A stretch of DNA of 64,000 bases from IMG/VR virus record IMGVR_UViG_2836755666_000018, positions 10,315 through 74,314 of that record; one strand, written 5' to 3'. The notes under the pieces are model-generated. The model made no database searches. It was not told the origin of the DNA and saw nothing but the letters and a program-made list of their open reading frames with translations. Below are positions 784 to 38,267 of the stretch, one piece after another; the stretch's first letter is position 1; the number at the start of each line of letters is the position of its first letter. The position numbers were made by a program, and so were the translations under genes. The stretch comes from a virus (taxonomy: Duplodnaviria > Caudoviricetes).

Positions 784-1068
784 TTAAGGCTTTGGGGGTA
801 CTGTTCCCCAGGTGAGATTATTCTGTTTCCCTTTTACCGTAATTTGAATGACTTCACTTGCTGGCGCACTAATCTCATTCATCTCCCAGCCTGACAGGGC
901 CAAGATCATCGTGGCTGTCCGTTTATTGGGTAGCTCAATATAAAGCTGAACGGTTTCTCTATTTTGTGCCAAATTTAAAAATTCAGTAAAATCTTCATTT
1001 TCGGGGTCATCGATAAAACCTAGCGTCTTTTCCGGCCCTTCCGGTAAATCGGCTATATATTGTTTGTT
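784..1068 (-). CDS. Helper major tail protein, 3' part (split by satellite 1)
   Basis: Reads NKQYIADLPEGPEKTLGFIDDPENEDF...WGTVPPKP*; joins in frame to 16269-16450 through the shared AACAAACA. Confidence 0.88.
   Translation of the reverse strand, partial: NKQYIADLPEGPEKTLGFIDDPENEDFTEFLNLAQNRETVQLYIELPNKRTATMILALSGWEMNEISAPASEVIQITVKGKQNNLTWGTVPPKP
1061..1068. repeat. att core of satellite 1 (terL-side end)
   Basis: TGTTTGTT at the exact point where tail-gene coding stops. Confidence 0.85.
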
Positions 1069-1141
1069 TTTATTTCAAATTATTTATATCTATTTGAATT
1101 ATATATATTTATTTATATATACAGGCATAAAAATAGCTATC

Positions 1142-1165
1142 TGCAATACACATTGCAATACACAG
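1142..1165. promoter_or_regulatory. Putative integrase arm-type sites (tandem GCAATACACA)
   Basis: TGCAATACACATTGCAATACACAG; same motif near all four satellite ends. Confidence 0.75.
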
Positions 1166-1221
1166 GTTTTAATCAGAAGAGAAATTTGTTTAAGATTATC
1201 CGGGGCGCTAATAAAAACCCG

Positions 1222-2889
1222 CTACACACCATCAAATGAAGCTAATCGTTCTTTCTGCTCATCGGTCAGGCTAAAGGTAAAGTCCTCATGCTCTATCTGC
1301 CATGTACCAAAGCTCATCAAAAAGGCTAAGGCGGGGTCAATTTTGTTAGCCGATTTTTTCTTGTTCGGTTTGATATTGGCGTTTGCATCGGTTTCCATTA
1401 CCACATTTGCGATCGCCCACGCTAAAACGGGGTCACCGTTATGGTGGATATTCTGACGATTAACAAAGACTTCTGCTGACTTGGCGACAGGGCTTAAACG
1501 CATATAGGTTTGTGGGAAGGGTTCAACATCTAAACCTGCACCCTGTAATTGCGTTCTGAGATGAGTGGCATTCCATGTATCAAAGCCAATGAGCTTAATT
1601 TCAAACTGCTCACTGTCTTTGAGAATATCATCTCTGATACGGTCATAATCAATACAATCGCCTTTAGTGGTTCTCAGCCAGCCTGACCGTACCCATTGAT
1701 GATAGATTGCTCTATTTTTATTCGCTGGACTCTGTAATTGCGCTTCGGGGATATAGTGACGGCTCAATAGCAAGAGCGCATTTTCTTGTGGGAAGGTATA
1801 ACAGACGCTAGTAATATCGTTTGTTGAGGATAAATCCATCCCTGCATAACAGGTTTGTCCCTTTAAATCCGTTTCCTTGTAGTCCCGTTGACAGGCAGCC
1901 CAAGCCCCTTCACCCATCCACGGCGTTTGACCCTGACACCAGATATTAAATCGTTTGGTTAACATCTCTGTCCATTGTGAGGGAATTCCCCTTGCTTTTT
2001 TAATCGTATCGTTCAGGGCATGACTTTCTACAGAGACATTAAGATTAGGATTGGCTTTAACCCAGTTATGCTCATCATCAAGCTCACCGTCTTCGTCTAG
2101 TTCATAAATCAGGGCAAAGAGTGATTCATTCTGCGCTTCACCGTCCAATATCTGACAACAATAATCATAGTGCTGTTTACAGGCTGAAATAACATTGCTC
2201 CCTGCGGTGGTAATGGCAAAAAGTAGTGCTTCAGGGCGTGCCCCCATCCCTAACTCAAGCGCGGAATAAACCGCATTATCAGGGTGTAAATGATACTCAT
2301 CGACAATCGCCAGACTCGGATTAGTCCCTTCGATTGTTGCCGCCTTAGCTGCCAGAGGTTTTAGCAAACTGTTATTTTTAGGATAAATTATTTTATGTTG
2401 CTGGATAGTCAGCCGTTTCTTTAGGCTAGGGGATAGCAAACACATCTGACGGGCATCATCAAAAACAATGCGTGCCTGGTCTCGACTCACGGCTGCTGTA
2501 TAAATATCCTGTTGACCCCCTTCCATGATTAAAAACCAGTTAGCCAGTATTGCAGCTAATGTAGACTTAGCGTTCTTTCTTGGCACTTGGATATACGCAC
2601 TACGATATTTTCTTCTTCCCGTGCTAACTTCTTTGAATCCTAAAATATTCGCTATAGCAAATTGCTGCCAAGGTTCTAATTGAATAGGCTTGCCTCGAAG
2701 ATGTCCTTTGACATGGGGGCAGAGACTGGAAAAAGCGATAAACCGTGCTACCGTTGGCGTATCGAAGGTATAAACAGGATTATTGAGGTCATTAAAATAA
2801 CGATTAACCGCCTGTTTTAAGCGTTTACAGGCCGGAATATCGCTATTTCTGACGCGCTCAGCGTATTGATGCCAATCGGTCAAGTTCAT
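1222..2889 (-). CDS. terL: Satellite terminase large subunit
   Basis: LEPWQ, Walker A VPRKNAKST, Walker B AIVDEYH, ITTAG, KIDP motifs. Confidence 0.95.
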   Translation of the reverse strand: MNLTDWHQYAERVRNSDIPACKRLKQAVNRYFNDLNNPVYTFDTPTVARFIAFSSLCPHVKGHLRGKPIQLEPWQQFAIANILGFKEVSTGRRKYRSAYIQVPRKNAKSTLAAILANWFLIMEGGQQDIYTAAVSRDQARIVFDDARQMCLLSPSLKKRLTIQQHKIIYPKNNSLLKPLAAKAATIEGTNPSLAIVDEYHLHPDNAVYSALELGMGARPEALLFAITTAGSNVISACKQHYDYCCQILDGEAQNESLFALIYELDEDGELDDEHNWVKANPNLNVSVESHALNDTIKKARGIPSQWTEMLTKRFNIWCQGQTPWMGEGAWAACQRDYKETDLKGQTCYAGMDLSSTNDITSVCYTFPQENALLLLSRHYIPEAQLQSPANKNRAIYHQWVRSGWLRTTKGDCIDYDRIRDDILKDSEQFEIKLIGFDTWNATHLRTQLQGAGLDVEPFPQTYMRLSPVAKSAEVFVNRQNIHHNGDPVLAWAIANVVMETDANANIKPNKKKSANKIDPALAFLMSFGTWQIEHEDFTFSLTDEQKERLASFDGV

Positions 2890-3223
2890 CTTCTTCTTGC
2901 ATTTCTACCGGATTACGGCGACGTGATACGGGGTCAAAACCTAATAGTGAGGCCATTTTTATCATGGTTTTTTCTGCCTCGGCTTTTGCGCTTAGTGCGG
3001 GGTTCCTACTTTCGCTTCCCTGACTGTTGGCGATACTAAATCCGCGTTCTGCGAGGTCTGCAACGGCTTTTCGGTAAATGGAATAGTTGACGCAATACAG
3101 CTCAAAGCTACTCCAATCAGTGGGGTTCAGGTCGTTACGCTCTGCAACGAATTTTGCCTTAGCTTTCCATTCTGTAGTAGCAATCTCATCAAGATAGCTA
3201 GGGGCTTTGGGTGCTCTTGCCAT
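2858..3223 (-). CDS. terS: Satellite terminase small subunit (P27 family)
   Basis: PKAPSYLD...NPAL...LGFDPVSRRR; directly upstream of terL. Confidence 0.9.
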   Translation of the reverse strand: MARAPKAPSYLDEIATTEWKAKAKFVAERNDLNPTDWSSFELYCVNYSIYRKAVADLAERGFSIANSQGSESRNPALSAKAEAEKTMIKMASLLGFDPVSRRRNPVEMQEEDELDRLASIR

Positions 3224-3254
3224 AATCTATTGTTTTCCTTATTGTTTTATTTTC

Positions 3255-3337
3255 AAAAAAATTACTGCGCATAAAAATTGGATTGACGTGCGGTCCCAGC
3301 GCAATAGGGGGTTGTCATATTTAACTCCCCCACCCCC
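3255..3337 (-). other. Candidate satellite cos/packaging region
   Basis: Non-coding gap between HNH module and terS with G-run and GGGACCGCACGTC, as in HK97-type cos regions; conserved at about 24095-24180; exact cut site not determinable. Confidence 0.5.
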
Positions 3338-3495
3338 TACTTCCAAGGCTGATTCCTAAAACATTCCATTAGCTCACGGTCACGCTGAGTCAATCGTTTA
3401 ACGTAGGATTTATTCGCGCTTGGCTTAACGCGTCGATAACCTTGGCTATGTCTAAGTAATCCCTTAATCAATTGATTTATCTGATATTCGTCCAT
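3337..3495 (-). CDS. Small hypothetical protein
   Basis: MDEYQINQ...QRDRELMECFRNQPWK, conserved in satellite 2. Confidence 0.5.
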   Translation of the reverse strand: MDEYQINQLIKGLLRHSQGYRRVKPSANKSYVKRLTQRDRELMECFRNQPWK

Positions 3496-3934
3496 TAAGG
3501 TTATACTCGTGTATCCAGTCATTACGATGAGCAGCTTTTTCTTCCTGCTCACGGAACATGCCAGCTTTACGCTGTGCTTTAGTTATTGGATCTTGCTGAA
3601 TAATTTTGCGGTTATGACATCCCTGACACAATGATTGATGGTTATCTTGCCACCAGAACAGTACATCGCTATCTCCATCGATTGGGATGATATGGTCAAC
3701 GATTTTAGCGGGTGTATATATCCCCTGACTTTCGCACTTCACGCAAAGAGGATGCTCCTTCAAATAAATCAGACGATATTTAGCCCATTGGCTGGAGTAG
3801 CCACGCTGGGTATGCGTTCCTCGTTGTTTTTCTACTCTGCGTCTGGCTGCTCGTTTATGCGCCTCGCACTTACCCGATTTCACTCGGGTACTACAGCCTG
3901 GCTCTGTACATCTTTTTAATGGTTGATACGGCAT
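3464..3934 (-). CDS. HNH endonuclease (terminase cofactor)
   Basis: RGYSSQW...HPLCVKC...VDHIIP...NHQSLCQGCHN. Confidence 0.92.
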   Translation of the reverse strand: MPYQPLKRCTEPGCSTRVKSGKCEAHKRAARRRVEKQRGTHTQRGYSSQWAKYRLIYLKEHPLCVKCESQGIYTPAKIVDHIIPIDGDSDVLFWWQDNHQSLCQGCHNRKIIQQDPITKAQRKAGMFREQEEKAAHRNDWIHEYNLNGRISDKSID

Positions 3935-4237
3935 TTAATACACTCCAATATCTCGATACACTGACCATAACGATTTAATCGTAAAGGGGACTTCTTTAAG
4001 CTCAACATCTGTTGCCATTTCCCGATTCTCATAGAGCAATCCGATATAGAGCAAACACCCAACCTTAATTGCTGGCGTGAATGTCAATCCTTCATCAAAC
4101 CGTTTGCCGATATGTTGTTGACAGGCTTCAAGTGCTGCTTCGGCATACGTGGTTAATAATTTATCATCCAGCGTAAAACTCTCTTCTAATCGACAATGCT
4201 GTTTGATTTCATTTAAAGGGATTTTTACATTAATCAA
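3935..4237 (-). CDS. Head-tail connector (gp6-like)
   Basis: LNEIKQHCRL...LLYENRE...VPF...VYR. Confidence 0.88.
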   Translation of the reverse strand: MINVKIPLNEIKQHCRLEESFTLDDKLLTTYAEAALEACQQHIGKRFDEGLTFTPAIKVGCLLYIGLLYENREMATDVELKEVPFTIKSLWSVYRDIGVY

Positions 4238-4568
4238 ATCGTCCTCCTCCCTTGCAAATCAATTCTAATCTTGATTGGCGTGCATCGGATAAAACAACGG
4301 CTATCTCAAATCGAGAACCCAGTGTATTAGCACCTTTATACACAATGGCGTTGTCAATCGTGATATCAGGACGATAACGCATCCAAATCTTGACGATGGC
4401 TTGAGGATAGCGAGTACCAAAGGTTAATAACTCCTGACCGCGTAGCGCTTTTACTTCTGCCCAGACATCTTCAACATCTACCCAGGTTACTCGCTGGTCA
4501 CCTAGATTACCGTATGTAATCTCTTGTTTCTGAATCGTCACACGATGTCTTAATCGTCCTGCTCTCAT
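4230..4568 (-). CDS. Head closure / head-tail adaptor
   Basis: MRAGRLRHRVTIQ...VWAEV...IWMRYRPDI. Confidence 0.9.
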   Translation of the reverse strand: MRAGRLRHRVTIQKQEITYGNLGDQRVTWVDVEDVWAEVKALRGQELLTFGTRYPQAIVKIWMRYRPDITIDNAIVYKGANTLGSRFEIAVVLSDARQSRLELICKGGGRFD

Positions 4569-5782
4569 GCGTTGTCCTCCGCATGTTTCTTAACCTCAAT
4601 ATGCTGTTTCCACGCCTGACTAAATTCATCACCGCCATCACGAGGCGGTAAGCCTTCCCGTTCACGGGCTTCATTGGGGCACATCACACCGGATTTAATC
4701 GCCGTTTCATAACTTAAGAAACGCTCTCTTGGGTTGGCTCTGAGTAAATCGGCGGTGTCAAATTCCACTTGGTAACGCATACCGGATTGCGGAACATTAA
4801 GTAGTAGTGCCGATTTGATTTGCTGTTCGAAATTCGCTAACCAAGGGCGCATGGTAATGGTTAAAAACGCGCGGCTGGCTTCACTAAAATTACTGTAGGT
4901 ACTGTTGGAATATTCTTGCAGAAAAATAGGGCTGACATTAAACATGCGGGCGATATCTTCTATCGTAAAACGGCGGGAAGCTAACCATTCTGCATCCTGA
5001 TTACTCATGCCTAATTTTTCATATCCCATTCCACCTTCAAGGATTGGCACTTTACCCGCATTTTTTGCCCCTCGATAACGTTCAAGCGCGTCAAGGGCTT
5101 TTTGCCCTTTGGCATCATTCAGCCACTCATTGGATTTAATAATCCCTGCTGCCATCATGCCATCTTTCATCACACTCGCGCCGTGGCGCTGTTGGGCTAG
5201 TCCTAAACCTAATGTCTCCCGACAAATCGTAATCGGTGAACGTCCCATAAACCCATCATCCGTGGCGTAACGTAAATGTAAGATTTCTTCTTGCAGACAG
5301 ATACGGACTTGACCACTGTAGGGCTCGGTTATCGTATAACGGTAACGGTGCTCACTTAATCGTTCAGGTACAACCGCACTCGGCGGATAAGGATGTAATG
5401 AAGCGGGCTGTCCGTCTTTACCCCATGTGATAAGCGCATAGGCATTACCATTGAGTAAGCAATGGCGCATTAGGGTTCGTTTAAACTGGAAAGGTGTTTG
5501 ACAATCATTTGGTTTTTCATTGAGCAAATAATCTACCACGTGGTTACTTAGCCATTCCCGTGATTCCATACCTTTATCATTGTGTACCCGATATAAAAAA
5601 CAGGGCATCGTCGCCACCGCTTCACTAATCACCGTAACGGCATTGATAACAGCGGGTAAGCCTTCTGCGGTGATCGGTGAGACATATTCGCCTGACCGAC
5701 TGTTAGGAATGCCAGCCAGTGACAGGAACTCATCAATACTAAAGCTGCGTTCTTCTGCCTTTTTATGTCTGAATGGCCACAT
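4565..5782 (-). CDS. Satellite portal protein (HK97 family)
   Basis: LLNGNAYA, EILHLR, GRSPI, IARMFNVSP, PNEAREREGLPP; start at TGATG overlap. Confidence 0.95.
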   Translation of the reverse strand: MWPFRHKKAEERSFSIDEFLSLAGIPNSRSGEYVSPITAEGLPAVINAVTVISEAVATMPCFLYRVHNDKGMESREWLSNHVVDYLLNEKPNDCQTPFQFKRTLMRHCLLNGNAYALITWGKDGQPASLHPYPPSAVVPERLSEHRYRYTITEPYSGQVRICLQEEILHLRYATDDGFMGRSPITICRETLGLGLAQQRHGASVMKDGMMAAGIIKSNEWLNDAKGQKALDALERYRGAKNAGKVPILEGGMGYEKLGMSNQDAEWLASRRFTIEDIARMFNVSPIFLQEYSNSTYSNFSEASRAFLTITMRPWLANFEQQIKSALLLNVPQSGMRYQVEFDTADLLRANPRERFLSYETAIKSGVMCPNEAREREGLPPRDGGDEFSQAWKQHIEVKKHAEDNA

Positions 5783-6336
5783 CATTCCACCTCGGATAAT
5801 TGGAGCCACCGATGATGTAAATACGTGGGTTTGGAGCGATTAACATTGAGTGAACGCTTGGCAATTTCGACACCACTTTCAGGGTAAGCGGGTAAACTGG
5901 TGATCGTAATTTCGAGCAATTCAGCCTCAATAACCGTTCTAAGATAAGGCTTTTCGCCAATTTCCCAATGGTCTTTTATCGTCCTAAACGCAAAGCTCAT
6001 GCCGGAGATATCCCCCCGTTCAACCAGTGTCAGAACATCTCGGCCTAATTGCGTATCAGGCGGGGTAAGCGCAAACCGTAACCCCGTTTCATCTTCAGCC
6101 AGTTGTAACGTACTCGACGCGGTACGCCCTAACAGGTTGGTCACGTCATGTTCAAACAGACACCTTACATCTGTCTCTTTTCCCAGACTGTTTTTAAACG
6201 CATACGGGGCGAAGGTTTCAATAAATTCACCCCATAACAGTTGTGAGCGGCTATTCCACTTAACCGCATAGCCTGTTAGCTTTTTTTCATCAGCAGACAG
6301 GCTTGCCGTACGTATTTCAAAATCGGTTGATTTCAT
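5782..6336 (-). CDS. Prohead protease (HK97 family)
   Basis: GYAVKWN, LFEHD, GMSFAF, LLEITITSLPAYP. Confidence 0.93.
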   Translation of the reverse strand: MKSTDFEIRTASLSADEKKLTGYAVKWNSRSQLLWGEFIETFAPYAFKNSLGKETDVRCLFEHDVTNLLGRTASSTLQLAEDETGLRFALTPPDTQLGRDVLTLVERGDISGMSFAFRTIKDHWEIGEKPYLRTVIEAELLEITITSLPAYPESGVEIAKRSLNVNRSKPTYLHHRWLQLSEVE

Positions 6337-6341
6337 GGATA

Positions 6342-7511
6342 TTAGCCTCCGGCTCCTTTCGCCTTGACCTCAAGCACTTTAATTGCATTGGAATCGACTA
6401 ATCCACCGCCTAGATATTTATCAGTATGGATCTTGATAAAGCCAGGCTCAGTAATATTGTCAGGCCGTGTACGTGTGCCCGTCTGATGGTCAACAATGGT
6501 GTAACCGCGTTTAAAGTCACCGAGGGCTATCACATCATCATTCATAAATTCAAGGTAATGAACCGATAAACCCAACAGACTATCAGGATCACCCACTTGT
6601 AACCGTTCACGCCAGATATAATCACCATTGCCATTTTTCAATTTTTGTACTTTGGCAGCCGTGTTTGAGTTCATCACCCAGACGGCATTTTTACGGTATT
6701 TATTTTTTAGCGTGAATTTCAGGTCAATCAGACTATCCGCTTCCAGCTTGGTCACTTCCTGCTTTTGCAATGTGCCAAAGCTGCGGTCTTTATCTGCTTT
6801 CGTATCACGGGGATAGGATAGAAATCCTTTTGCTTTTTTTGTGCCGTTACCACTGACTAAATCGGTTTCTTCGGTATCAACAAAGGTGTCAGCAATTTCA
6901 CGGGTCAACCAGCCTAAAATATCGACATCACTAAAATCGAGGATTTCCTGAGTGGTTTTAGGATAGGCATAGACAGGAAATAACTTGATACTGACTTCTT
7001 CCAGTTTAGGGGTAGCGGTTTCGGTGCGGGCTTTGCCTTCTTCACCGTGATTGATCACGGCACCACCAACAGACACCAGTTGCTTATATTCGTTGCTGTG
7101 AGTGGTCTTGATAGTACAGATTTTACGCATGACGGACTCATCACTGAGACGTTGCATAATCTGTTTATTTAGTTCAGGAATAACGGTATAGCCACCATCA
7201 GCCGGAACCCCAGTCGAAAGTCCGCGCGTTTCCCCTGTCAAAACATAATGCCTTAATGCATCATTTCCCTGTTCTTTTTGTACAGGCTTTGCCGCTAATG
7301 TTCTTTCTTCATCAGCAAGGCTTTCATAACGGGCAATTTCAGTATTAAGGGTTTCCGACTGATGACGCAACGCATCAAAGTTTTTAGCTTCATCTTCGGT
7401 CAGTGTTCGTTTTTCGGTTTCTGCTAAGGTCAGCATTGATCGCATTTGTGCCGTTAAATCGGCTTTTTGCTGACGTAATTCAAGTAGTCTTTTCAAGGTT
7501 GGCTCCTGCAT
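6342..7511 (-). CDS. Satellite major capsid protein (HK97 fold with delta domain)
   Basis: Coiled N-terminus, DGGYTVIPE, YRKNAVWVMN, GDFKRGY. Confidence 0.95.
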   Translation of the reverse strand: MQEPTLKRLLELRQQKADLTAQMRSMLTLAETEKRTLTEDEAKNFDALRHQSETLNTEIARYESLADEERTLAAKPVQKEQGNDALRHYVLTGETRGLSTGVPADGGYTVIPELNKQIMQRLSDESVMRKICTIKTTHSNEYKQLVSVGGAVINHGEEGKARTETATPKLEEVSIKLFPVYAYPKTTQEILDFSDVDILGWLTREIADTFVDTEETDLVSGNGTKKAKGFLSYPRDTKADKDRSFGTLQKQEVTKLEADSLIDLKFTLKNKYRKNAVWVMNSNTAAKVQKLKNGNGDYIWRERLQVGDPDSLLGLSVHYLEFMNDDVIALGDFKRGYTIVDHQTGTRTRPDNITEPGFIKIHTDKYLGGGLVDSNAIKVLEVKAKGAGG

Positions 7512-7930
7512 GCAGTGATTGTCTTAACTGAACATGCAGAAAAAAAGCAGCTAAGGGAAGGTGATATAAACCTTAACCGCTTTTAGTAACCATGAATATT
7601 TCAAAATACACCTGCATGAATCAGGAACCTCAATTTAACATGATGAAAAATAACAGGAAACAACCTCACAGGAAGGCAAAAAAGATGAGAAAACATGAGA
7701 ACCAATAATTTACGCAACTTTACATTAGTTATTTATCAAATATCATCAGCTAAAAATTTAACAGATGTTCTTATCAATTTATCATTCTCCTAGGTCACTG
7801 TTGTGATGACCTCGAAATAACCCGCTAACCCTTTGATTTACTGCAAGTGGTCAAATTGACCCCTTGCTAGAATATTCAATTCATCAAGAAAATTTCTAAT
7901 GACATAGTGAGTAATCTGTTATGACTATCT

Positions 7931-8783: not shown

Positions 8784-11012
8784 TTAGAATACATCTTTTA
8801 ACTCCATACCAATCATATCGGCAAATCTGATCCGTAATTCATCAACACTCGGTAGTTCATAAACAATTCCTATACCGCATCCCCTACGTCCTAGTTTATT
8901 TAGCCCCATTCTGATCATCGTTTTCCCAACGCGACTACGGGCGGCGGCTTCGGTTTCCGGTTCACCATTACTTTTACACCAGAATAAATAGTTATCGATT
9001 AATTCAGTTACTGGAATTCGTACCTTTCGATCAAACGGTTCATCTTTTGATAATTCGGCATACAGGTAAGCATATAACCCCGTTAAACCAAAGAGTATTT
9101 CTTCTTTAAGTGCCTCGGTTTTCGGTGCGCGGTGGCGATCAAAACCTGAAATATCATAATGCTGTAAATAATAAAGTAGCTTGGCTGCACCTTTATCATT
9201 CACCCATTGGTATAAGTTATCAAAATAGCTTTTATCTTGTGCTCTACTGCCGTCAGGCTCTAATACTAAATATCGCCTCTCTTTTATTCCTGCCTTCAAT
9301 GCCTGAGTACTATTACTTGCAAATATCAAACGTGAAAAATTAGCCATTGGCTCAGGATCAATTCCTTTCCGCTCAAGGTTAAACGTAGATTCACTAATAA
9401 TGCCATTGAGTTTTTCGCCATCTTTAGCACTGGCTACTGTCGCTTCATCAGCAAATACCAACAATTTATTTGCTAACATGGCATTGAACTTTGCGGTAAG
9501 GTGCTCTGCACCGTTAACCTGTACGCCGTATTGCCCTAAAATTTGGAGTAATGGCTTTACAAAAGTTCCTTTTCCTGCCCCTCTGACCGATTTCATAGCG
9601 ATAGCCACGGACGGTTTTTCATCCGGTTTCTGGATTAAATGCGCCATCCATGCAATTACATATTGATACGCTATTTCATCACCTGAACAAATTATGTGGC
9701 GGATATGATTTAAATAAAGGCTACAATCCCCCTCAACAGGTTTAACCGATAACCCCATATACAGGTTGTAGACAGTATCAGGACATTTTGACGGTTCAGG
9801 GTAAAAACCGACTCCATTAGGTTTATAGTTCTTCCCTTTCCATTTTAACCAGGCATCACCTAATGATAGCTTTTTGGCAATGCGCCCTTCATGCAGGAAA
9901 TAGTTTTTAAATTGCGCTAATTCCTCAAAGGTATGCATTAATCCATTAACTTGACAAGGTTTAAGGGTGACAACTCTGTGTTTTCCGCCGATCGTAACAT
10001 GGGTATAAATGCCATTCATCTTTTGAAGTAAAGCGAGTTCGTTAGCCGTAATCACTTCTCCACTTCCTAGCTCGTAGGGATCAAAATCGGTTACTTCATC
10101 AAATTCAACTTGATACGCCCCCTCTATAAACGCCTGTTTTGCTGCCTCAATCCCATGTTGCTGACGGTAATCATCCCAATCAGCTTTTTCTTTGGTTGGC
10201 GGTATGGTGACCCAACCATTAACCACTTTTGCGGTTTTCTCCGCTTTAATCTTGCCAATATTGGCTTCATCGGGCTTAACATCATTATCCGCCGCAATAA
10301 TGATTTTTGATTGGGGGTAATGCTTCCTGACCCATGTAGCAACGGGTAATAAATTACCTTCATCAAGCGCTGCCAGTACCACGCCTTCATGTAACTGGCT
10401 CACGGTTAAAGCGGTTGCATATCCTTCGGCAATTAACACCGTATCGGGCGTTCCAGTGAAATCAACGACGGGAATATAGCCGCCTTTTTTCTTTGTGCCT
10501 GAGATAAAGCGCTTTTCACCGTTAGCTCTGATAATCTGAGCACCCAGTAATTTATCACCCTGTTTTACGGGTAATATCATCGAGCCATCTTTTAATAGCT
10601 TAACTGAACAGGTATGACCTTTGAGTATTAAGTACTGAGATTGACCTAATGTGGCTTCTTCTAATAACTTTGCGGATTTTTTAATAGCATCCGTTAAAGG
10701 CGGTTTATCTGATATAGTCGTTTCTTTTTGGACAGGTATTGAAATAACCTTAGCCACTTCCTTAGCCGCTTCCGTGACATCAACATTAAATAACCGTCTC
10801 ACTAAATCCAGTCCGTCACCACTACCACACTGATTACAGATAAATGTGCCGTTACCTTCCTTATCATCAAAGCGAAAGCGGTCTTTACCCCCACAAGCTG
10901 GACAAGCGGTATGACGATTCAAGGGGACTTCTGCCCCCAGTGATGCTAATATACCTTGCCAACGTCCTGTGGCCTGCTGCTTAACCTGACGGATTAAATC
11001 AATATTTCTCAT
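8784..11012 (-). CDS. Satellite 1 primase-helicase (Zn finger + TOPRIM + DUF5906/SF3-like helicase)
   Basis: CPACGGKDRF, AEGYATA, AADND, DWDD; Walker A RGAGKGT, FADEA, IFASN. Confidence 0.92.
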   Translation of the reverse strand: MRNIDLIRQVKQQATGRWQGILASLGAEVPLNRHTACPACGGKDRFRFDDKEGNGTFICNQCGSGDGLDLVRRLFNVDVTEAAKEVAKVISIPVQKETTISDKPPLTDAIKKSAKLLEEATLGQSQYLILKGHTCSVKLLKDGSMILPVKQGDKLLGAQIIRANGEKRFISGTKKKGGYIPVVDFTGTPDTVLIAEGYATALTVSQLHEGVVLAALDEGNLLPVATWVRKHYPQSKIIIAADNDVKPDEANIGKIKAEKTAKVVNGWVTIPPTKEKADWDDYRQQHGIEAAKQAFIEGAYQVEFDEVTDFDPYELGSGEVITANELALLQKMNGIYTHVTIGGKHRVVTLKPCQVNGLMHTFEELAQFKNYFLHEGRIAKKLSLGDAWLKWKGKNYKPNGVGFYPEPSKCPDTVYNLYMGLSVKPVEGDCSLYLNHIRHIICSGDEIAYQYVIAWMAHLIQKPDEKPSVAIAMKSVRGAGKGTFVKPLLQILGQYGVQVNGAEHLTAKFNAMLANKLLVFADEATVASAKDGEKLNGIISESTFNLERKGIDPEPMANFSRLIFASNSTQALKAGIKERRYLVLEPDGSRAQDKSYFDNLYQWVNDKGAAKLLYYLQHYDISGFDRHRAPKTEALKEEILFGLTGLYAYLYAELSKDEPFDRKVRIPVTELIDNYLFWCKSNGEPETEAAARSRVGKTMIRMGLNKLGRRGCGIGIVYELPSVDELRIRFADMIGMELKDVF

Positions 11013-11359: not shown

Positions 11360-11368
11360 CTCTCCCCC

Positions 11369-28765: not shown

Positions 28766-29225
28766 AAAACTGTTCATACTGTTCACCAATTCAATAAAAG
28801 ATATATATATCAATAAATTATGTGGTGAATAGTTTTGTGTTAAGTGTTCACCACTGTTCACCCTTTCAATAAAGTGTTCACCTTTTTATGGATTGCTTTA
28901 GTTCAGGCAATAATAGTATAACGTATTGATATATAATATATTTATTTGCAATCATTAACAATCAAAACACTTTTATTAAATATTAATAAACACTTCCATC
29001 TTTTATTTTTCTTACAAGATTAAAAAATTATTTTATTAACCAACTTAAATAAATATTAATTTTATTTATAAATAAATTGAAGTTAGAAAACTTTTGTTCA
29101 TTACCCCTCCCATAAAAGGTGAACAGTGGTGAACACTTGGTGAATAGTTTTAAGTTAAGTGTTCACCCTTTAATTTATTGATATATATATCTTTTATTGA
29201 ATTGGTGAACAGTATGAACAGTTTT
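28766..29225. other. Satellite 2 replication origin: P4-type TGTTCACC iterons in a long inverted repeat around an AT-rich core
   Basis: 55-bp perfect inverted repeat 28766-28820 / 29171-29225, multiple TGTTCACC/GGTGAACA, IHF-like TATCAATAAATTA. Confidence 0.8.
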
Positions 29226-29390
29226 TACCAAAAAGTTTTATACGCATCTATTTTTTGTCTAACGCGACTTAAATAAAAAATTCTTTCCTTTCCCTGGTAG
29301 GCAGATAAAAAAGCCAGCCTTTTACTGGCTGGCGTTGTTTGTTTAGTATTGGCTGATGCTGGTTTGATATTACGGTGTCTATAATTTATG

Positions 29391-31655
29391 TTAAGGTACA
29401 CTTGGCAACCAATCTTCGGCCTCCACTTCATTTAATTCCAGATTTGTTCTATATCCATGTTTTGTTCTTTCTCTAATATACCTTTTACCCAGTTCTTTAA
29501 GCGCATTATTAATCGAGCGTCCAAAGGCGGTTAAACTCAAGGCGTTTTTATTACCGTTCCCTTGCATATAAGCCGTGTAAGCATGGTATAAATATTTCCT
29601 TGGCACTGGCGGGTAAATATTGGCGTTCCCCATCATCATACCGCTAGCAGCTTCTAATGTAATGAGATAGGCGCAAAAATCGATGAGGGGTCACTTTCCC
29701 GTTTGATTTCTATCGCTTCCCCTGATCCCCTTTGTTCAAGTAATAACGCTTTTGCGTCTTCTGGATCATCAAAGTTGCCAACAATCGACGTACAATGACA
29801 GCGATCTCACTTGAAATCTTTTCCGCTAACCTAGAATCTTTATCTTCGTCTTTTACCTTGTTATTGAACTGGAATATCACTCGCCTACGGGCTACACCGT
29901 CTGCACGTTCAGTGAATATCATAGGGGTATTATTTGTTGCAATAACAACGGCTCTTATTACAGTGCTATACTGATGTTCATATTTAGGGTCAATTTCAAT
30001 TAAATCACCGCCTGTTATGGCTTTTGCTCCCGTGGCTTCTCCTATGTACTTCGGTTGATCGGGGATGGTGATCAATCGTTTACTAACGAATTGTGCTCGC
30101 CCTCTCGCGGTATCTAAAGCGGCCATATTGCTACTTCCGGTATTATCTTCACCTACGAGTAAAGTGGCTATTTGGGCAAAACACTTTACCGCTTCCGCCT
30201 ATTCCTGTAATTTCTAAAACAGTTCCCAGTCATAGCGGTTAGCTAAAATCATATATAACCCTGCAAAATCCGTTTCATTTTATACGGGTCACGATTAGCA
30301 GCATGATCTAACCATTTATGAAAATGTGGGCATGATCCGTAAATTTTCATCGGGTGGGGCGGGTCTATATTCAATCCCATTGTGATTTAATAACCAGTTA
30401 TCGGGCTGGTGTGGTGAAAATACTTTAGTTTTAATATTAAAGACACCATTAGCAAAAGGAATAACATCGTTACAAGGCTTACCCAACTTAGGGACAATAA
30501 TTTTCAATGCCTCCACCGCATTATTAACCGCTCGGTTGCTAAAGTTGGTGTTATGTTGACAATAGATATTGCCCATTTCACGAGCCAGATCAAGGTGGGA
30601 AATTTTTTCCCATATCCCTGATACGTAGCGATAAAATACCTTACTATCACTGTGTACAGCGATCCCCTCATAACGTTCAGCCAGCAACAAGGCTTTTTCA
30701 TTGTCTGCCATTTGAGAAAGATTGTTACCCGTCTTTTGCTTGTCAGGCTCAACTTGATACGCCCCCTCTATAAACGCCTGTTTTGCTGCCTCAATCCCAT
30801 GTTGCTGACGGTAATCATCCCAATCAGCTTTTCTTTGGTTGGCGGTATGGTGACCCAACCATTAACCACTTTTGCGGTTTTCTCCGCTTTAATCTTGCCA
30901 ATATTGGCTTCATCGGGCTTAACATCATTATCCGCCGCAATAATGATTTTGATTGAGGTAATGCTTCCTGACCCATGTAGCAACGGGTAATAAATTACCT
31001 TCATCAAGCGCTGCCAGTACCACGCCTTCATGCAACTGGCTCACGGTTAAAGCGGTTGCATATCCTTCGGCAATTAACACCGTATCGGGCGTTCCAGTGA
31101 AATCAACGACGGGAATATAGCCACCTTTTTTCTTTGTGCCTGAGATAAAGCGCTTTTCACCGTTAGCTCTGATAATCTGAGCACCCAGTAATTTATCACC
31201 CTGTTTTACGGGTAATATCATCGAGCCATCTTTTAATAGCTTAACTGAACAGGTATGACCTTTGAGTATTAAGTACTGAGATTGACCTAATGTGGCTTCT
31301 TCTAATAACTTTGCGGATTTTTTAATAGCATCCGTTAAAGGCGGTTTATCTGATATAGTCGTTTCTTTTTTGGACAGGTATTGAAATAACCTTAGCCACT
31401 TCCTTAGCCGCTTCCGTGACATCAACATTAAATAACCGTCTCACTAAATCCAGTCCGTCACCACTACCACACTGATTACAGATAAATGTGCCGTTACCTT
31501 CCTTATCATCAAAGCGAAAGCGGTCTTTACCCCCACAAGCTGGACAAGCGGTATGACGATTCAAGGGGACTTCTGCCCCCCAGTGATGCTAATATACCTT
31601 GCCAACGTCCTGTGGCCTGCTGCTTAACCTGACGGATTAAATCAATATTTCTCAT
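29391..31655 (-). pseudogene. Satellite 2 primase-helicase, P4 alpha-like (D5 helicase + winged-helix origin-binding domain), frameshifted
   Basis: N-terminus as in satellite 1 up to GAYQVE; then IPFANGV, KAITGGD, IATNN, YLYHAYTAYM...SLTAFGR. Confidence 0.85.
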
Positions 31656-32001
31656 GATTTATCCTCCTGAGCAGCAGCGCTATCCGCCATGTCATTCATC
31701 ATGTCAACCCACATATCAAGCCCCATCCCTGACAACTTGCCGTTCTCAACGCACAGGTCAAGTATTTGTTCAGCGACAGATTCCCAAGATTTGTATTCAT
31801 CTTTCAACGGTTTTAATGCATAAGTATCAACCAGCTTCCGAATCCCTTTTACGCCGTCGATAATATCAACATGAATAGCGTCATCTTCGGTGTATAAGGT
31901 AAACCAGTCTCCGCCGTTTTCTGCTCTTACATCCTGATAGATTGCCTTAGCAAAAAGCGTTAGCCCGTGCATTCAGGCGAAAGTTTAAAGTGATTAATGT
32001 C
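31652..32001 (-). pseudogene. Hypothetical protein (homologue of 11009-11359), 5' indel
   Basis: Sequence homology. Confidence 0.65.
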
Positions 32002-32012
32002 ATCTTTCCCCC

Positions 32013-32553
32013 TTAATGCACCACAGCAACGGGCTGAACATTGCCGTTAAGCACATCATCGATAAATAGGTTATGGAGTTGGGCTAAAATTTCTTGCCCC
32101 ATAAAGGAAAGTTTTAAACACTTAGCATTACTGACTTCTAGCATGTTTCGATAAAACGTCAGAATATATTGCTCTGCGTCTTCCTTGGTCTCCCTAGAAT
32201 AAAAAGCGCCTTCAATATTATTCTCCATGCCCATGCGTTCAGTCGCCAGAAAAATAGGAAGGTGATAGTTTTTATGGGTGTAGTAAGGCTGACCATTTTT
32301 AACGTTGCATTGCATAACGAAAATAGCCGAAATAACACAGCGTACGGACGTGATCACATCGGCTTTGTTAAAATCGTCTTTTTTTCCAGTATTCATCGAT
32401 TAATTTCAGGATTAACTTAGGGTCATCATCCCAATGACCCTCATTAACACGATTAGGGATATCCGCCACAGGAATCGTTATTTTTCAATATGCCCCTGTT
32501 CGTTTAAATGTGTAAGGCATACATTTTGCCAATGGTTTTATTTTATAGCTCAT
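32013..32553 (-). pseudogene. Hypothetical protein (homologue of 11369-11911), frameshifted
   Basis: Sequence homology. Confidence 0.65.
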
Positions 32554-32785
32554 CTTGACCCCTTCCTTTTTTTAGCCTGTTTGCGCTTACACTTTTCGAC
32601 TTAGTGCCTGTGTGCTTTGAGCCACTGACATAAGTGTTAATCCCAGGATTTCTTATAAATTGGGGCTTCACTTTTCCCTTAAGAAAAGCCCGTGTATTCT
32701 TAGCGTTAAAGGTATTATCCCGCCCTGAGTTATAGCCATCGCTAAAAGTAATTAATGGTTGTTCGTCATATTGTGTCATGTTCAT
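32543..32785 (-). CDS. Small basic hypothetical protein (homologue of 11908-12144)
   Basis: Sequence homology; 3' indels. Confidence 0.6.
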   Translation of the reverse strand: MNMTQYDEQPLITFSDGYNSGRDNTFNAKNTRAFLKGKVKPQFIRNPGINTYVSGSKHTGTKSKSVSANRLKKGRGQDEL

Positions 32786-33099
32786 CTCACGCCCTCCGAT
32801 ACAGGGAATCCTTCACGCTGATAGAGTGTGAACTGGGCGTTTTCTGCGTTGATAATGAGTGCCTGAGCAATTTTAGGTAAGCACATCAACGCCTCACTCA
32901 TCCGGCATAAATCCGCTTTCGCCTGACTATCGGCATAGTTTTCATTGCTACATGCCCAATATGCGCATTCACCAAAGGCTTTTAGCCCTGACATAATCCC
33001 ATCAAACCCTGCCTCACAAGCACCTTTCATTTCTCTTAGATCTTTAGTGCTCATCGCCTGTAAATTATCCGCTATGAGGTAATGCTGAATATCAGCCAT
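32782..33099 (-). CDS. Hypothetical PICI protein
   Basis: Homologue of 12141-12458. Confidence 0.72.
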   Translation of the reverse strand: MADIQHYLIADNLQAMSTKDLREMKGACEAGFDGIMSGLKAFGECAYWACSNENYADSQAKADLCRMSEALMCLPKIAQALIINAENAQFTLYQREGFPVSEGVR

Positions 33100-33691
33100 G
33101 ATGTACCCCCTTGGTGAAATCACCTAAATCACAGATAGACAGTTGGGAAAGTTCAATAACGGTTTTGATGGCTGGACGAAGGCGCTTAAGCTCTCTACGG
33201 CGTAGGGTCATCGCTGCACTGCCTGGCTTACCATGACCAAGATAAGAGTCCTTCTCTGCCTTAACGACAAGATGTTGCGCTTCCTCCGGTTTCATCTGGC
33301 TTAACTCTTCAAGCGAAGGAATATCAACATGACGGAGTTCACCTAAGGTGTTACGGCGGAAATAAACATTGACTAGCTCTTTTTGTATTTTCCAAGAAAG
33401 CTCATCACGAAATGACTTAACGATTAACAAATAACCTGATTCAGTTAGAACCGTTAGCCCCCTGTTTGGCACAGAAATTCCTAAAGTATCTAATTGATAC
33501 TTTAGAGATACTGGAATCGATAAATAATCTTCCTCATAGACAAAATGTTCTCTATGGCGGTTAAATGCGACTCGTGTAGTTCCTTTAGGGCGATCATGTG
33601 CCTTATCAATCATGGCAAAAGTAACAACACGCTTACCTTGGTACTCCACAACAGGCATCGCCCGATTATGGATAGCGACAAAATTAGACAT
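33092..33691 (-). CDS. ORF6N-domain DNA-binding protein
   Basis: Termini match 12451-13053, centre differs. Confidence 0.85.
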   Translation of the reverse strand: MSNFVAIHNRAMPVVEYQGKRVVTFAMIDKAHDRPKGTTRVAFNRHREHFVYEEDYLSIPVSLKYQLDTLGISVPNRGLTVLTESGYLLIVKSFRDELSWKIQKELVNVYFRRNTLGELRHVDIPSLEELSQMKPEEAQHLVVKAEKDSYLGHGKPGSAAMTLRRRELKRLRPAIKTVIELSQLSICDLGDFTKGVHHG

Positions 33692-33887
33692 GTTGTCCCT
33701 CCTTACCCATGTCTAGCATGGTCACGAGGGTATTAGCCCTTTCAGACGCCAAAAACACTAAATCAGATAGATAAAAGGCTAGGCTATTATCCTTTTCTAC
33801 TGCTATCTGATTGATACAATTAAGCAAAGATGCCGTTATGGTTGCATAGTGAAGAAGATTGTCATTATTGACATAAGCGCTATTCAT
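33684..33887 (-). CDS. Hypothetical protein unique to satellite 2
   Basis: Overlap-coupled with RBS GGAGG. Confidence 0.6.
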   Translation of the reverse strand: MNSAYVNNDNLLHYATITASLLNCINQIAVEKDNSLAFYLSDLVFLASERANTLVTMLDMGKEGQHV

Positions 33888-34072
33888 AATGTCACCTCCT
33901 CTAAATCCTGACGAGATTTAGCCAAGTCCCTGGCATATTCGAGTAGGGCGAAAGCAATGTCTTGTGACTTCGGATCGCTAAATAAATATTCCATCGTCTC
34001 AAGCAATGTCGCTATGACATTTAATTTGTCTTGAGGGTGAATATAAGCCGCTGGAAGTGAGCTATTACACAT
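33884..34072 (-). CDS. Hypothetical protein unique to satellite 2
   Basis: MCNSSLPAAY..., RBS GGAGG upstream. Confidence 0.55.
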   Translation of the reverse strand: MCNSSLPAAYIHPQDKLNVIATLLETMEYLFSDPKSQDIAFALLEYARDLAKSRQDLEEVTL

Positions 34073-34259
34073 AAGCCACCTCCTGTACAGGCTTAAGGCC
34101 TGACAAGACAAGCCGATCACCTTTGACCAGCACATGAAATAATCTGCGCTCACGACGGGTTAATGACACTTTGCCGTAGGGAATGTTGGAATCTAGAGGG
34201 ATAATCCAGTAAGTATCTGTAAAATTAGGGCGAGTTTAGGTAGACTTATACGAAGCCAT
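34064..34259 (-). pseudogene. Icd-like protein, frameshifted
   Basis: Homologue of 13046-13279; 3' end approximate. Confidence 0.5.
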
Positions 34260-34629
34260 AACTGTTACTCCAGTTATCGTTGTGGTTAGGCGCCCTGCTA
34301 GTGTGGTACGACTGTAGGGCGTTGTCTTTTATACAATGCCATAGTCACTTGTAGTTACAAATAAACACAGTATAATAGGAGTAAACCAAGTGTCAATACA
34401 GGAAAAGGATAAACGAAATAACGCAGTTTTCTAATTTCGAGTTGAACCGCCACTTGGAGCTGCTAAGGAATAAAACAGCATTATTAGAAGACGGCGATGC
34501 TTCTGTTTCAGGATGGATGAAACGCATTATCCGTAAAGAACTAGACAAAAGAGGCATCCCCTAAAGGCTGAAATCGCTTAGATACATATTCCGCTGATTG
34601 CTTCTGAGCCAATCCAGCCAACCCAACCA

Positions 34630-35021
34630 ACCCGATATTATCGGGTAGCCTCATCATCAGAGAAAAATTTCCTTGATGTTCTGAGTGACCATGAGCCACT
34701 CGCTTTGTTTGTTTATTAACCGTTCCTCTTAATGATGAATGGTTATTTTTTGCACTACTCAAATTTGAGTAGATGAGGTATTTTAAGCTGCGGTTAGATG
34801 GTTGTTTTGTATACTGCACAAATTGAATCAACCTATTGTTTTTAATGCTTTCTTTTGTTCGCACCTCTCTAATGGCTTGTACACCCATGTTGTTTAATTT
34901 CTGAACTACACTTTTTGTGTAGTGACCTACACTTTTTTTGTAGGTCGACTTGTTCAGGCGATTAAATATATCGCCCCCCTGATTTTTGGCATAAAGAAGC
35001 CCTTCACGGTTATTCACCGTG
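34630..35021. repeat. Palindrome array, second copy
   Basis: Same palindromes as 13639-14030. Confidence 0.72.
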
Positions 35022-35301
35022 TTTTGAATGTTCATATTGAACCTTATTTAATTAATTGAGCGGTGAGTCATGCTGCTTGGTCAGAAAAAGGGGACTTTCG
35101 GTAATCACTGCCTGCCAGGGAAAGGAAAGAATTTTTTTAATCTACTTCCTCTTTAAGTTGTTACAGGTCTTTATAGGTTTTTAGAGGTATTTTATCTACC
35201 TATACCTAATTAACTAATTGATATTAAACGGATTAAATGTAATTGGTACAGGTGATACAGGTTTTTTAGGTTTTCTGCCAAAAAGGGGACTTTTCCCCTC
35301 A

Positions 35302-35586
35302 TCAGTGAGATTGACGGCTGTAAGGATTATTCACGTTCTTCACCTCTGGCGGATTGCGTGCCCACCATAGAACATCGCTTAATAGCCATGAGACGGAGTT
35401 CTTTCCCATAGGTATACGCTTAGGAAATTTTCCTTCTTCCTCTAACACCCATCGACGGGAACGGGATAAACCAGATATCTGCTTACATTCGGCTTCCCTG
35501 ATTCGGCGATCATACTTTTGACCATATTCATCTAAAATAAATTGTCTTTCTTCTCTGGTAGGTTCAGTAAATTTAACCGTTATCAT
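35302..35586 (-). CDS. alpA: AlpA family regulator
   Basis: Identical protein to 14314-14598. Confidence 0.88.
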   Translation of the reverse strand: MITVKFTEPTREERQFILDEYGQKYDRRIREAECKQISGLSRSRRWVLEEEGKFPKRIPMGKNSVSWLLSDVLWWARNPPEVKNVNNPYSRQSH

Positions 35587-35660
35587 TATTTCTTCTCCAT
35601 AATAAAAAAACCCCGATTAACGGGGTTCAATTCATGACATTTAATTTTTATACGTTCTAG

Positions 35661-35885
35661 TTATTCAGGTTTCCATGTGCCTTTTATCCAAGCCTGAACT
35701 TCGGATAATCGGTATAATCTGGTTTGTAGTCCTATATTTATTTTTAAAGGAAATCTGCCCCTTTTTTCTAAATAATATCTATGATTTCTACCTAGCGAAG
35801 TTAACCATTCACATTCTTCTTCTTTAATTAATCGGTCAATTTCATCCATATTTTCTATCTCAGCACGAGTTAATATTAGTATCAT
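35661..35885 (-). CDS. AlpA family protein, probable excisionase/RDF
   Basis: Divergent homologue of 14671-14895. Confidence 0.82.
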   Translation of the reverse strand: MILILTRAEIENMDEIDRLIKEEECEWLTSLGRNHRYYLEKRGRFPLKINIGLQTRLYRLSEVQAWIKGTWKPE

Positions 35886-35900
35886 AAAACCATCTTCTTT

Positions 35901-37088
35901 TTATAATGCGTTTAAATAATCTACCCACCAAACAAGCGCTTCTCTTTTCCTATTCATATATTTACTTCGATTGTATATTCCCGCTACACCAGTTAATGTG
36001 TGACCAAGTAATTGTTCAATAACATTATGTTCAAATCCGTTATCACTAAGATTTGTAGCGATTACTCTTCGCATATCATGTGGAGTCCATTTTTCTAAAT
36101 GATTAAGCCTTTTCCATATTTTTATCATGCTGATACTGGCTGCACTCTGACGCATGTTAAAACCAATTACCCTCTCTCTATTACAAGTTGCTTTGTTTAA
36201 TAGTGATAGCCATTGTTTAAAATTATAGGGAATGGGTCTAATAATTTCTCTACCATTTTTACTATGATGAGGGGGGACTCGCCATATATCATTTTCTAAG
36301 TCCCATTCATCCCATGTTGATAATATTATTTCAGAAAGACGACAACCAAAGACAATAAGAAATTTTAAAATAATTCTATTTTCATATGAGATAATATGAT
36401 TATCATATTCTTTATTCACATAATGCCACAGCGCTTTTAATTCATCCTTTGTTAACACTCTCTCTCTTTTATTTGATTTTTTTCCTACATCACTTACATC
36501 TAAATCGTCAATTTCATGGCTGATTGCATATTTTCTAACCCTACAAAATTTTAAAGCCTGTTTTGTTGTTTTTAACATTGCGCCTGCTTGTACCGGAGCA
36601 ACTTTTTTTATTCTATCGAAACAGTTAACCCACATAGACAACGAACAATCATTCAATGGAATATCTCCAATATCGGAATAAATATGTTTCATGAAACAAC
36701 TTTGAATATATTTTGCGCCTTTTCTTTTATCTTGAGCATAATTATTAATCCAGTATTCTAAGCTATCTTTGACTGTAACAGGTTTCAGTAAATCATCTTT
36801 GGTTATTTTGATTTGTATTCTCGGATCTTTACCCCCAGCTAACCATATTCGACAATTATCTCTCTGCTCCCTTGCGGCTTTTAAACTTAAATCTGGGTAC
36901 TTGCCTAATGTTAACCATATAGGCGCGCTCTTTCTCCCGTAAAGGCGAAAGAAAAAAACAAAACTTATCGTACCTGTTTTACTTATTCTTATAGCTAACC
37001 CATTACCATCAGCAATAGTTTGTTGTTTTTCGCTTAATTTACCATGTAAGGATCTTAACTTTTTATCACTGAGCTTGTTGACTGCCAT
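35901..37088 (-). CDS. int: Tyrosine integrase of satellite 2
   Basis: MAVNKLSDK..., FGCR, SKNG, HDMRR, LGH, GIY; divergent from integrase 1. Confidence 0.95.
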   Translation of the reverse strand: MAVNKLSDKKLRSLHGKLSEKQQTIADGNGLAIRISKTGTISFVFFFRLYGRKSAPIWLTLGKYPDLSLKAAREQRDNCRIWLAGGKDPRIQIKITKDDLLKPVTVKDSLEYWINNYAQDKRKGAKYIQSCFMKHIYSDIGDIPLNDCSLSMWVNCFDRIKKVAPVQAGAMLKTTKQALKFCRVRKYAISHEIDDLDVSDVGKKSNKRERVLTKDELKALWHYVNKEYDNHIISYENRIILKFLIVFGCRLSEIILSTWDEWDLENDIWRVPPHHSKNGREIIRPIPYNFKQWLSLLNKATCNRERVIGFNMRQSAASISMIKIWKRLNHLEKWTPHDMRRVIATNLSDNGFEHNVIEQLLGHTLTGVAGIYNRSKYMNRKREALVWWVDYLNAL

Positions 37089-37108
37089 GTAGCGCCCTTT
37101 TTTCAATT

Positions 37109-37132
37109 TGCAATACACATTGCAATACACAG
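37109..37132. promoter_or_regulatory. Putative integrase arm-type sites
   Basis: TGCAATACACATTGCAATACACAG. Confidence 0.75.
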
Positions 37133-37259
37133 AGTTGTGTAAAAACCAGAAAACACGAAAAAACACGAGAACAATAAAAAATGAATAATCTATTTTATAT
37201 CAGTATCTTACAAACAACACGAGGACGGCTAATCCATTATAATTAGCAGATATTACATT

Positions 37260-37274
37260 CTTTGTTATAAAATT
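37260..37274. repeat. att core of satellite 2 (int-side end)
   Basis: CTTTGTTATAAAATT. Confidence 0.9.
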
Positions 37275-38267
37275 CGTCCTAGCTGAAACCTGCTCCTGTG
37301 CTTTTTTTGCAAGGCGGCGCATATCATCCCATCGCTTGCAAATACCTAATCCAGGATTGGCTTTTTGCCACATCTTCTCGTCAAACGGATCATCTTTCTT
37401 GTCTAGGGTATAAATAATGCCAAAGAAGGAATCGTCTTCAACCTGCCCCTGTAAAACCTTGATGGCATAATCGCGTAATTCGTAGCATATGCCTTCTTTA
37501 TTAAATCCAGCGGTGGTAATACCGAAGAGCAAGGATTGTAATCTTGCACCTGTTGCCGTCTCTAATACGTCCCAAACATCACGCGTTTTGTGTGCGTGCA
37601 GTTCATCGACAATACCGCAATGGATATTTAACCCGTCCAAATTATTTGCATCGCTGGATAGTGGTTCGAATTTTGAAGCGGTGACTTCTTGATAAATCGC
37701 TAATTTATTGAACTCAAAACATTGACCAAGGGTATGTTTAGCCTTCCTTATCATGTTTTTTGCATCTTCAAAGACAATGCGAGCCTGATCACGAGTCGTG
37801 GCGGCTGAATAAACCTCTGCGCCACCTTCGCCGTCTGATCCGGTCATATAAAGTGCAATACCTGAAGAAAGCGTTGATTTGGCATTCTTACGGGCAACTT
37901 CGTTATAGGCGGTACGAAAACGTCTGACCATCACGACTCGTCCACTGCCATCATTACGGATTACCCTTTCCCCCGTTTGTTCATCGACTAAAGGGATAAC
38001 AAATCCAAAAATATTGATCAGGATAAAAATATGCCAATCCATCAATTTTATAGTTTGACCGGCAAGATTACCTTTTACATGGGGCACAAACTGATAGAAA
38101 TTAAGGATATGTTGTGCGCGGGGGAAGCTAAAATAGATACCCCGTTCTTCACCATGCTCAAGGTCATTCAAAAAGCGTTGACACGCCAATCGTACATATT
38201 CACACGCGATGATATCACCCGACACAGCGCGTTGTGCATAGCTAATGCCTTCCGCTACTTTTGCCAT
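37260..38267 (-). CDS. terL: Helper terminase large subunit, 5' part (split by satellite 2)
   Basis: VARKNAKST, IVDELHAH, ITTAG, WQKANP...ARTNFITK. Confidence 0.92.

Follow-up and report, generated by a model that had tools for sequence, protein, structure and literature searches.

Two satellites of capsid-forming gene content embedded in the terL and tail-tube genes of an Arsenophonus-type lambdoid prophage

The DNA analyzed here, referred to as the window, is a stretch of 64,000 nucleotides, the right-hand part of a virus record 74,314 bp long. It carries a lambdoid prophage, hereafter the helper, whose late operon runs on the minus strand; coordinates are window positions, and all features lie on the minus strand unless marked (+). 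The operon begins with a Q-like antiterminator, holin and endolysin (40213–42602), followed by HNH and TerS genes (38267–39218, named from translation and position), terL, and the portal, head, neck, and tail genes. Two elements, both co-oriented with the operon, interrupt it. Element 1 lies in the tail-tube gene and element 2 in terL. They are separated by the portal, protease, capsid, and neck genes of the helper (16468–21060), and both are downstream of the lysis genes. The record holds no helper integrase, and both prophage ends are absent. Contigs of Arsenophonus nasoniae DSM 15247 carry both attL junctions at 100% identity (element 1 on L001, element 2 on L086), which points to Arsenophonus as the host of the record.

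Upstream of the lysis genes, an IS21 copy (44669–46613, +) flanked by a 6-bp target duplication splits the helper helicase-primase gene (42812–47021), suggesting that the helper may be grounded, or may need a primase from the satellites or the help of other prophages. The empty site of this insertion was seen only in a 93% paralogue within a relative's genome. That genome contains several similar prophage pieces, including a related prophage with an uninterrupted tail-tube gene (L114, 86–93%); the 5′ part of the helper terL was not found in its assembly. Among named phage and plasmid collections, the helper head region was matched at only ~66%. A tRNA search gave one gene, located outside both elements. 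Rfam matches were limited to a tRNA and sRNA-Xcc1, neither a C4 nor an isrK RNA reaching gathering score, and a promoter scan gave 4 sites, fewer than in shuffled sequence (9.3).

Both interrupted genes can be rebuilt from their halves. The tail-tube gene is divided into a 5′ part at 16269–16450 (Pfam Phage_TTP_13 positions 2–49) and a 3′ part at 784–1068 (positions 49–137), and terL into a 5′ part at 37260–38267, with the ATPase domain and TerL_nuclease positions 2–62, and a 3′ part at 21181–21921 (positions 58–283), Pfam thereby placing the halves of each gene end to end. Core identity blocks of exactly 8 bp delimit element 1 (attR, 1061–1068; attL, 16269–16276), and blocks of exactly 15 bp delimit element 2 (attR, 21907–21921; attL, 37260–37274). 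In-silico excision from these cores reproduced the circles of 15,208 bp (element 1) and 15,353 bp (element 2) that a preliminary description of this DNA had predicted, leaving a rejoined tail tube of 152 aa (junction LLDTNK/QYIADLPEG) and a rejoined TerL of 577 aa (junction ARTNFITK/HANVWVSAE).

The rejoined tail tube aligned as a single gapless HSP spanning the junction in all 80 of 80 loci (71–90% identity). The rejoined TerL did so as a single HSP in 78 of 80 (78–82% identity), the two exceptions being a truncated locus (L026) and a locus where an element occupies the identical site (L025). This colinearity with intact homologues bears out the earlier proposal that element 1 splits a tail gene, that element 2 splits terL, and that excision restores both reading frames. 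Taken by themselves the cores could be chance matches, because a shuffled window contains about 3.75 repeated 15-mers; their placement exactly at both gene breaks, together with a 20-bp doubled motif at all four ends, is not chance.

That motif is the arm signature described for helper-embedded PICIs (HE-PICIs), for which PMC10111431 gives a doubled TGTATTGC motif on either side of the attP center, at ~81 bp (upstream) and 132 bp (downstream). A doubled TGTATTGC-type motif occurs at four of four att arms: on the attR and attL sides of element 1 (1143–1162 and 16119–16138) and of element 2 (21990–22009 and 37110–37129). At no more than 2 mismatches, the 20-bp doubled motif gave 0 matches in 50 shuffles. 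Distances from block center to the 20-bp core motif were 78.5/134.5 for element 1 and 76/138 for element 2, sums that fit the published value, and the summed arm spacing was ~210–211 bp against the published 81 + 132. Both cores also contain AACAAA at a nearly equal distance from the arms, and this shared sequence may explain how the target site changed.

Each element encodes a tyrosine integrase next to its attL (element 1, 14892–16097; element 2, 35901–37088), and the two share 55% identity. In an integrase tree, an analysis that the preliminary description had proposed, both grouped with late-gene-targeting integrases (100/100), apart from those of chromosomal hpt, fis, and rcnR elements; the tree comprises 10 rows with a midpoint root and without the reference integrases of PMC10111431. 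Searching with integrase 1 yielded 0 matches in viral contigs; genome contigs gave 3 loci, of which one is spurious.

Downstream of its integrase, element 1 carries two AlpA genes (14314–14895), an accessory zone (11009–14044) with a gene for an ORF6N protein of the Bro network, a primase with Zn ribbon, Toprim, and DUF5906 domains (8784–11012), and a packaging module (1222–7511) that encodes, in transcription order, capsid, protease, portal, head closure, adaptor, HNH, TerS, and TerL. All eight packaging components of capsid-forming PICIs (cf-PICIs), namely capsid, protease, portal, adaptor, connector, HNH, TerS, and TerL, are represented (8/8), and its 19 main ORFs gave no tail or holin family match. 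Named phage and plasmid collections yielded no close relative of element 1, returning a single 48-bp match.

Element 2 follows the same plan, with two AlpA genes (35302–35885; one found by profile scan, one by likeness to element 1), a primase that lies in pieces in the record (29391–31700, upper end approximate) and whose 3′ part reads through as a single long open frame in L084, and a packaging module (22069–28300, upper end approximate) 97% identical to that of element 1. At the DNA level, the two elements align in three blocks at 97%, 94%, and 77% identity, the first extending over 6.6 kb. The description of a full head and packaging set therefore holds for element 1 from its own ORFs and for element 2 through this 97% DNA identity; no tail gene was found among the 19 main ORFs of element 1 or the scanned ORFs of element 2.

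The record contains many frameshifts in element 2 and in the helper head genes, a feature that the preliminary description did not mention. The frameshifts checked in the head genes, terL, and shosA were missing from independent contigs. Short indels of element 2 fell in runs of at least four like bases in 18 of 19 cases relative to element 1 (one 16-bp indel excluded) and in 14 of 16 relative to L084, and the 12 indel rows listed, of 192, were all carried by X1, X2, and X7, three of the public sequencing runs considered below. Pseudogenization of element 2 was rejected as the likely cause on account of this concentration in like-base runs, and the frameshifts look like assembly errors rather than decay.

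Comparison of the packaging proteins places both elements with cf-PICIs. Capsid, portal, and TerL of the satellites share 66–76% identity with their counterparts in four E. coli elements and 81–84% with those in two viral records, but only about 29–42% with the helper's own, which argues against recent capture from the helper. In a capsid tree, the satellite capsid clustered with those of E. coli elements that have the cf-PICI gene order, and helper-type capsids fell outside this group (100/100); the lineage comparison used these E. coli elements rather than EcCIEDL933 itself. The accessible description of EcCIEDL933 lists int, alpA, primase, and a head and packaging set (10.1101/2022.09.08.507074), and the cfPICI model of SatelliteFinder, whose components we matched by hand against the available text of PMC10085698, lists the content found here. 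With this gene content confirmed at late-gene sites, the earlier view of both elements as capsid-forming PICIs embedded in late genes appears right.

The elements equally show the features of HE-PICIs. The four zones of that class can be recognized, namely integration (int/AlpA), Bro (ORF6N), replication (primase), and late (packaging module), and, as in HE-PICIs, both elements are integrated inside a prophage late gene. Both insertion sites are among the 14 HE-PICI sites published in the accessible part of PMC10111431. The tail break lies at Phage_TTP_13 position 49, exactly the published site. The TerL break, at TerL_nuclease 58–62, corresponds to about 242–245 on the older full-length Pfam model, an estimate since that model is now split, and approximates the published Terminase_1:245.

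The double arrangement itself, which the preliminary description had considered unreported, is already known, because Tommasini, Mageeney, and Williams (2023) described an Arsenophonus helper prophage, Ana29.79.guaB, with two HE-PICIs at A:Terminase_1:245 and V:Phage_TTP_13:49 (PMC10111431, Results and Fig. 5C legend). The Discussion of that article names a portal site for the Arsenophonus elements, unlike its Results. Its main text does not contain the term "capsid-forming", interprets late genes as captured, and gives the cf-PICI paper no more than a passing citation, and its supplementary gene profiles may well display head genes. A later article, in its accessible text, merely cites this work (PMC12090721). 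Our literature search, in which subscription journals were thinly covered, found no publication joining cf-PICIs with helper-embedded elements or Arsenophonus, and no name in print for a class of capsid-forming satellites embedded in late genes.

Similar elements recur elsewhere. The satellite capsid had matches in 530 E. coli genomes, of which four were examined; one is embedded in a prophage terL and shows both motifs (L236/L237), and three occupy chromosomal sites. Searching viral contigs with integrase 2 returned five loci. L137 and L141 occupy the terL site, the latter represented by attL only and cut off after the integrase start; L139/L154 is a capsid-forming element, by gene content, in an apparent tail-chaperone gene; L140 lies in an apparent portal gene, and no capsid match lies within 10 kb of it. 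The remaining locus, L138/L155, is a 15,499-bp record that is 99.9% identical to the terL-embedded L137 and combines an attP junction with a packaging set that is largely complete but gave no head-closure match; a tandem arrangement would yield the same junction. A paired-motif scan for attP found 0 in viral contigs, a count that is uninformative since the known positive L138 was missed, and its four metagenome matches were simple repeats, as judged from their core zones.

To look for excision products of element 2, we aligned assembled contigs from 4 of 18 listed runs (X1, X2, X7, and X8; three studies) to 17450–37400; X1 or X2 may be the source of the record itself. One X1 contig joins 21906 to 37260, skipping exactly 15,353 bp, at depth 48. 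The restored terL exists as DNA. In the same run, the contig with the element 2 attL and integrase has depth 100 and the helper portal–terL contig 159; in X2, the helper head-gene contig reaches 380 compared with 102 for the element 2 integrase contig. Contig depth does not equal copy number, and these ratios are hints only. In X2, a loose end of 15 letters at 21921 matches, by eye, the 5′ side of terL, one X7 contig ends at the element 2 core, and X8 has no row indicating the restored junction. Of the excision junctions that the preliminary description had proposed to look for, the restored attB of element 2 was found in these contigs; no circle (attP) junction was listed in any of the four runs. 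The restored junction suggests that element 2 is active, short of proof.

We consider it quite probable that the window represents an Arsenophonus-type lambdoid prophage carrying two HE-PICIs of cf-PICI gene content, one in terL and one in the tail-tube gene, which excise upon induction and delay the helper. The anatomy, frame restoration, arm motifs, integrase kinship, and restored terL junction are observed here, and the steps of induction, excision, and head filling are modeled on HE-PICI and cf-PICI work. In the HE-PICI model (PMC10111431), late transcription enters a co-oriented element, whose excision restores the helper gene and buys time for the satellite. cf-PICIs, in the portion available of 10.1101/2025.02.11.637232, fill their own heads and need only tails, producing tail-less heads without a helper. 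By analogy, Q-dependent late transcription after induction would reach int and alpA of each element, and each integrase, with an AlpA-type directionality factor, would recombine the attL and attR of its element, so that a 15-kb circle is released and the helper gene is made whole. Each element would then fill its own small heads by means of its own terminase, with tails drawn from the helper or from a different prophage. Helper DNA could not be packaged from the present copy before element 2 leaves, and this copy could give no tails before element 1 leaves.

The preliminary description had called this arrangement a double lock. The lock stands in cis but not beyond, because the related prophage L114 has an intact tail-tube gene and the lysis genes lie upstream of both inserts; the IS21-broken helicase-primase likewise tells against it. 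The net effect would be a delay favoring the satellites rather than an absolute lock.

The same observations lend some weight to an alternative in which the helper is a grounded, decaying prophage whose satellites excise spontaneously or at the prompting of other prophages and receive tails in trans, their location having no timing role now. IS21 within the helicase-primase gene, the intact tail-tube gene of L114, and the reported production of tail-less cf-PICI heads without a helper (10.1101/2025.02.11.637232) are all in keeping with it. Nevertheless, we judge it unlikely, though the strongest of the competitors: the absence of the checked frameshifts from independent contigs leaves little sign of decay, and the greater depth of the head-gene contigs over the element 2 integrase contig in X1 and X2 is a weak hint of amplification after excision.

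Somewhat less likely again is that the restored terL junction derives from a second, satellite-free helper copy, or from cells permanently without element 2, rather than from ongoing excision. The finding of attB without attP and the several similar prophage pieces in the relative's genome are compatible with this source. However, the portal-to-terL region forms one unbranched contig in X1, X2, and X7 (~2.5, 2.6, and 4.5 kb), implying that any second copy must be near identical, and the attP of a relative (L138/L155) was assembled. That the two elements are a mis-assembled duplication of a single one, as their 97% identity over 6.6 kb and the error-rich element 2 region might suggest, is largely refuted and highly improbable, given integrases of only 55% identity, both attL junctions at 100% on separate contigs of an independent assembly (L001 and L086), and element 2-specific contigs in four runs from three studies. 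The start of a further contig, L117, coincides exactly with the element 1 core, a hint of branching in the assembly; this contig was discounted, L001 being unbroken through attL.

Returning to the favored interpretation of two excising HE-PICIs with cf-PICI gene content, the capsid-forming nature of the elements and the restored terL junction are small additions to the published arrangement. If embedded elements are indeed capsid-forming, as their genes suggest, this would link two satellite classes so far described separately. More tentatively, and with a probability that we place clearly below even for the proposal and its consequences jointly, the HE-PICI/cf-PICI overlap may constitute a recurring class, in which capsid-forming satellites sit in the very late genes that they compete with or depend on. 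A terL element would then silence helper packaging while its own terminase works, and a tail-tube element would trigger, through its own excision, the tails that it needs. Which product this prophage makes (helper virions, satellites with tails, or satellite heads lacking them) would depend on the order of the two excisions, and the two satellites, whose heads are nearly identical, would be rivals for a single supply of tails. The E. coli terL element offers a system in which to ask whether an insertion in terL or a tail gene sets the timing of tail supply and of helper packaging.

Among known systems, Ana29.79.guaB is the closest, with two elements in one helper, at terL and Phage_TTP_13:49, the same host genus, and the doubled att motif (accessible text of PMC10111431). 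Its size, 79 kb by name, is compatible with a 74.3-kb record lacking both prophage ends; the comparison by sites, motif, host genus, and size showed no difference, and prophage and record may be one and the same. The elements are cf-PICI-like in their length of ~15 kb, in encoding int, alpA, and primase together with capsid, protease, portal, two head–tail genes, HNH, TerS, and TerL, and in giving no tail or holin match, and the gene order of element 1 equals that of an E. coli fis element (L240). They differ from the prototype EcCIEDL933 in lying within prophage late genes instead of a chromosomal gene and in carrying two alpA-like genes, and their capsid-forming character is predicted from gene content. 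With 11capE/50icd, the founding HE-PICI, they share a position inside, and co-oriented with, a helper late gene that excision restores (accessible text of PMC10111431). In the same source, 11capE is an 11-kb element at a capsid-gene site, without terS and presumed to use helper packaging, and virions were not detectable from the model composite of Tommasini et al. Unlike 11capE, the two elements described here encode their own head and packaging set.

The two embedded satellites of the Arsenophonus-type helper prophage share a 6.6-kb direct repeat of 97% identity, which extends over window 1133-7740 in element 1, the satellite inserted in the tail-tube gene, and over window 21980-28558 in element 2, inserted in terL. 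We speculate that homologous recombination between these copies could loop out approximately 20.8 kb, predicted to comprise the helper head genes together with one hybrid satellite, and that such repeat-mediated looping might offer a route to late-gene capture.

Analysis of the element 1 attL region revealed a promoter-like site with 10/12 matches (window 16255-16284, minus strand) that spans attL, with its -35 box within the tail gene and its -10 box within the satellite, and is directed at the integrase gene. Such sites are rarer in this region than in shuffled sequences, and the candidate is therefore considered weak.

Beside the two satellites, the helper carries a third interruption, an IS21 insertion (window 44669-46613) that splits the helicase-primase gene and is flanked by a 6-bp target duplication; the halves on either side correspond to phrog_256 positions 5-133 and 239-778. 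The helper DNA polymerase is made up of two overlapping ORFs (window 55166-57230; an apparent frameshift), followed by an intergenic IS3 at window ~57290-58550. PADLOC analysis identified a ShosTA-like defence pair, ShosA and ShosT, at window 59099-60625; shosA is split here but unsplit in contig L145 of the relative, as a single 299-codon open frame.

The helper early region also contains a tRNA-Lys(CTT) (window 52909-52984) and an sRNA-Xcc1 match (window 53498-53586). The tail-tube gene is followed by a 75-aa gene (window 504-731) whose product contains G-x-x repeats of collagen-like type and weakly matches a family of tail-fibre connectors. A tail-region ORF left of the window (G000:C1:5503-6039, same virus record) appears to encode an Ail/Lom-type outer-membrane protein.

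Related elements were identified in other genomes. In Escherichia coli tcmA_3 (NZ_CP059835.1), a predicted capsid-forming element (L236:146-17790 and L237) occupies the same terL site within a prophage and retains both arm motifs, the 20-bp doubled HE-PICI motif, with some head genes annotated as frameshifted. A second predicted capsid-forming element, encoding a related integrase, lies within a complete provirus (L154:1100-17150; G004), where its host gene appears to be a tail-chaperone gene. Erwinia endophytica likewise harbours a related integrase, alpA and the arm motif (L002:9700-11460), directly preceded by what appears to be a fragment of a portal gene.
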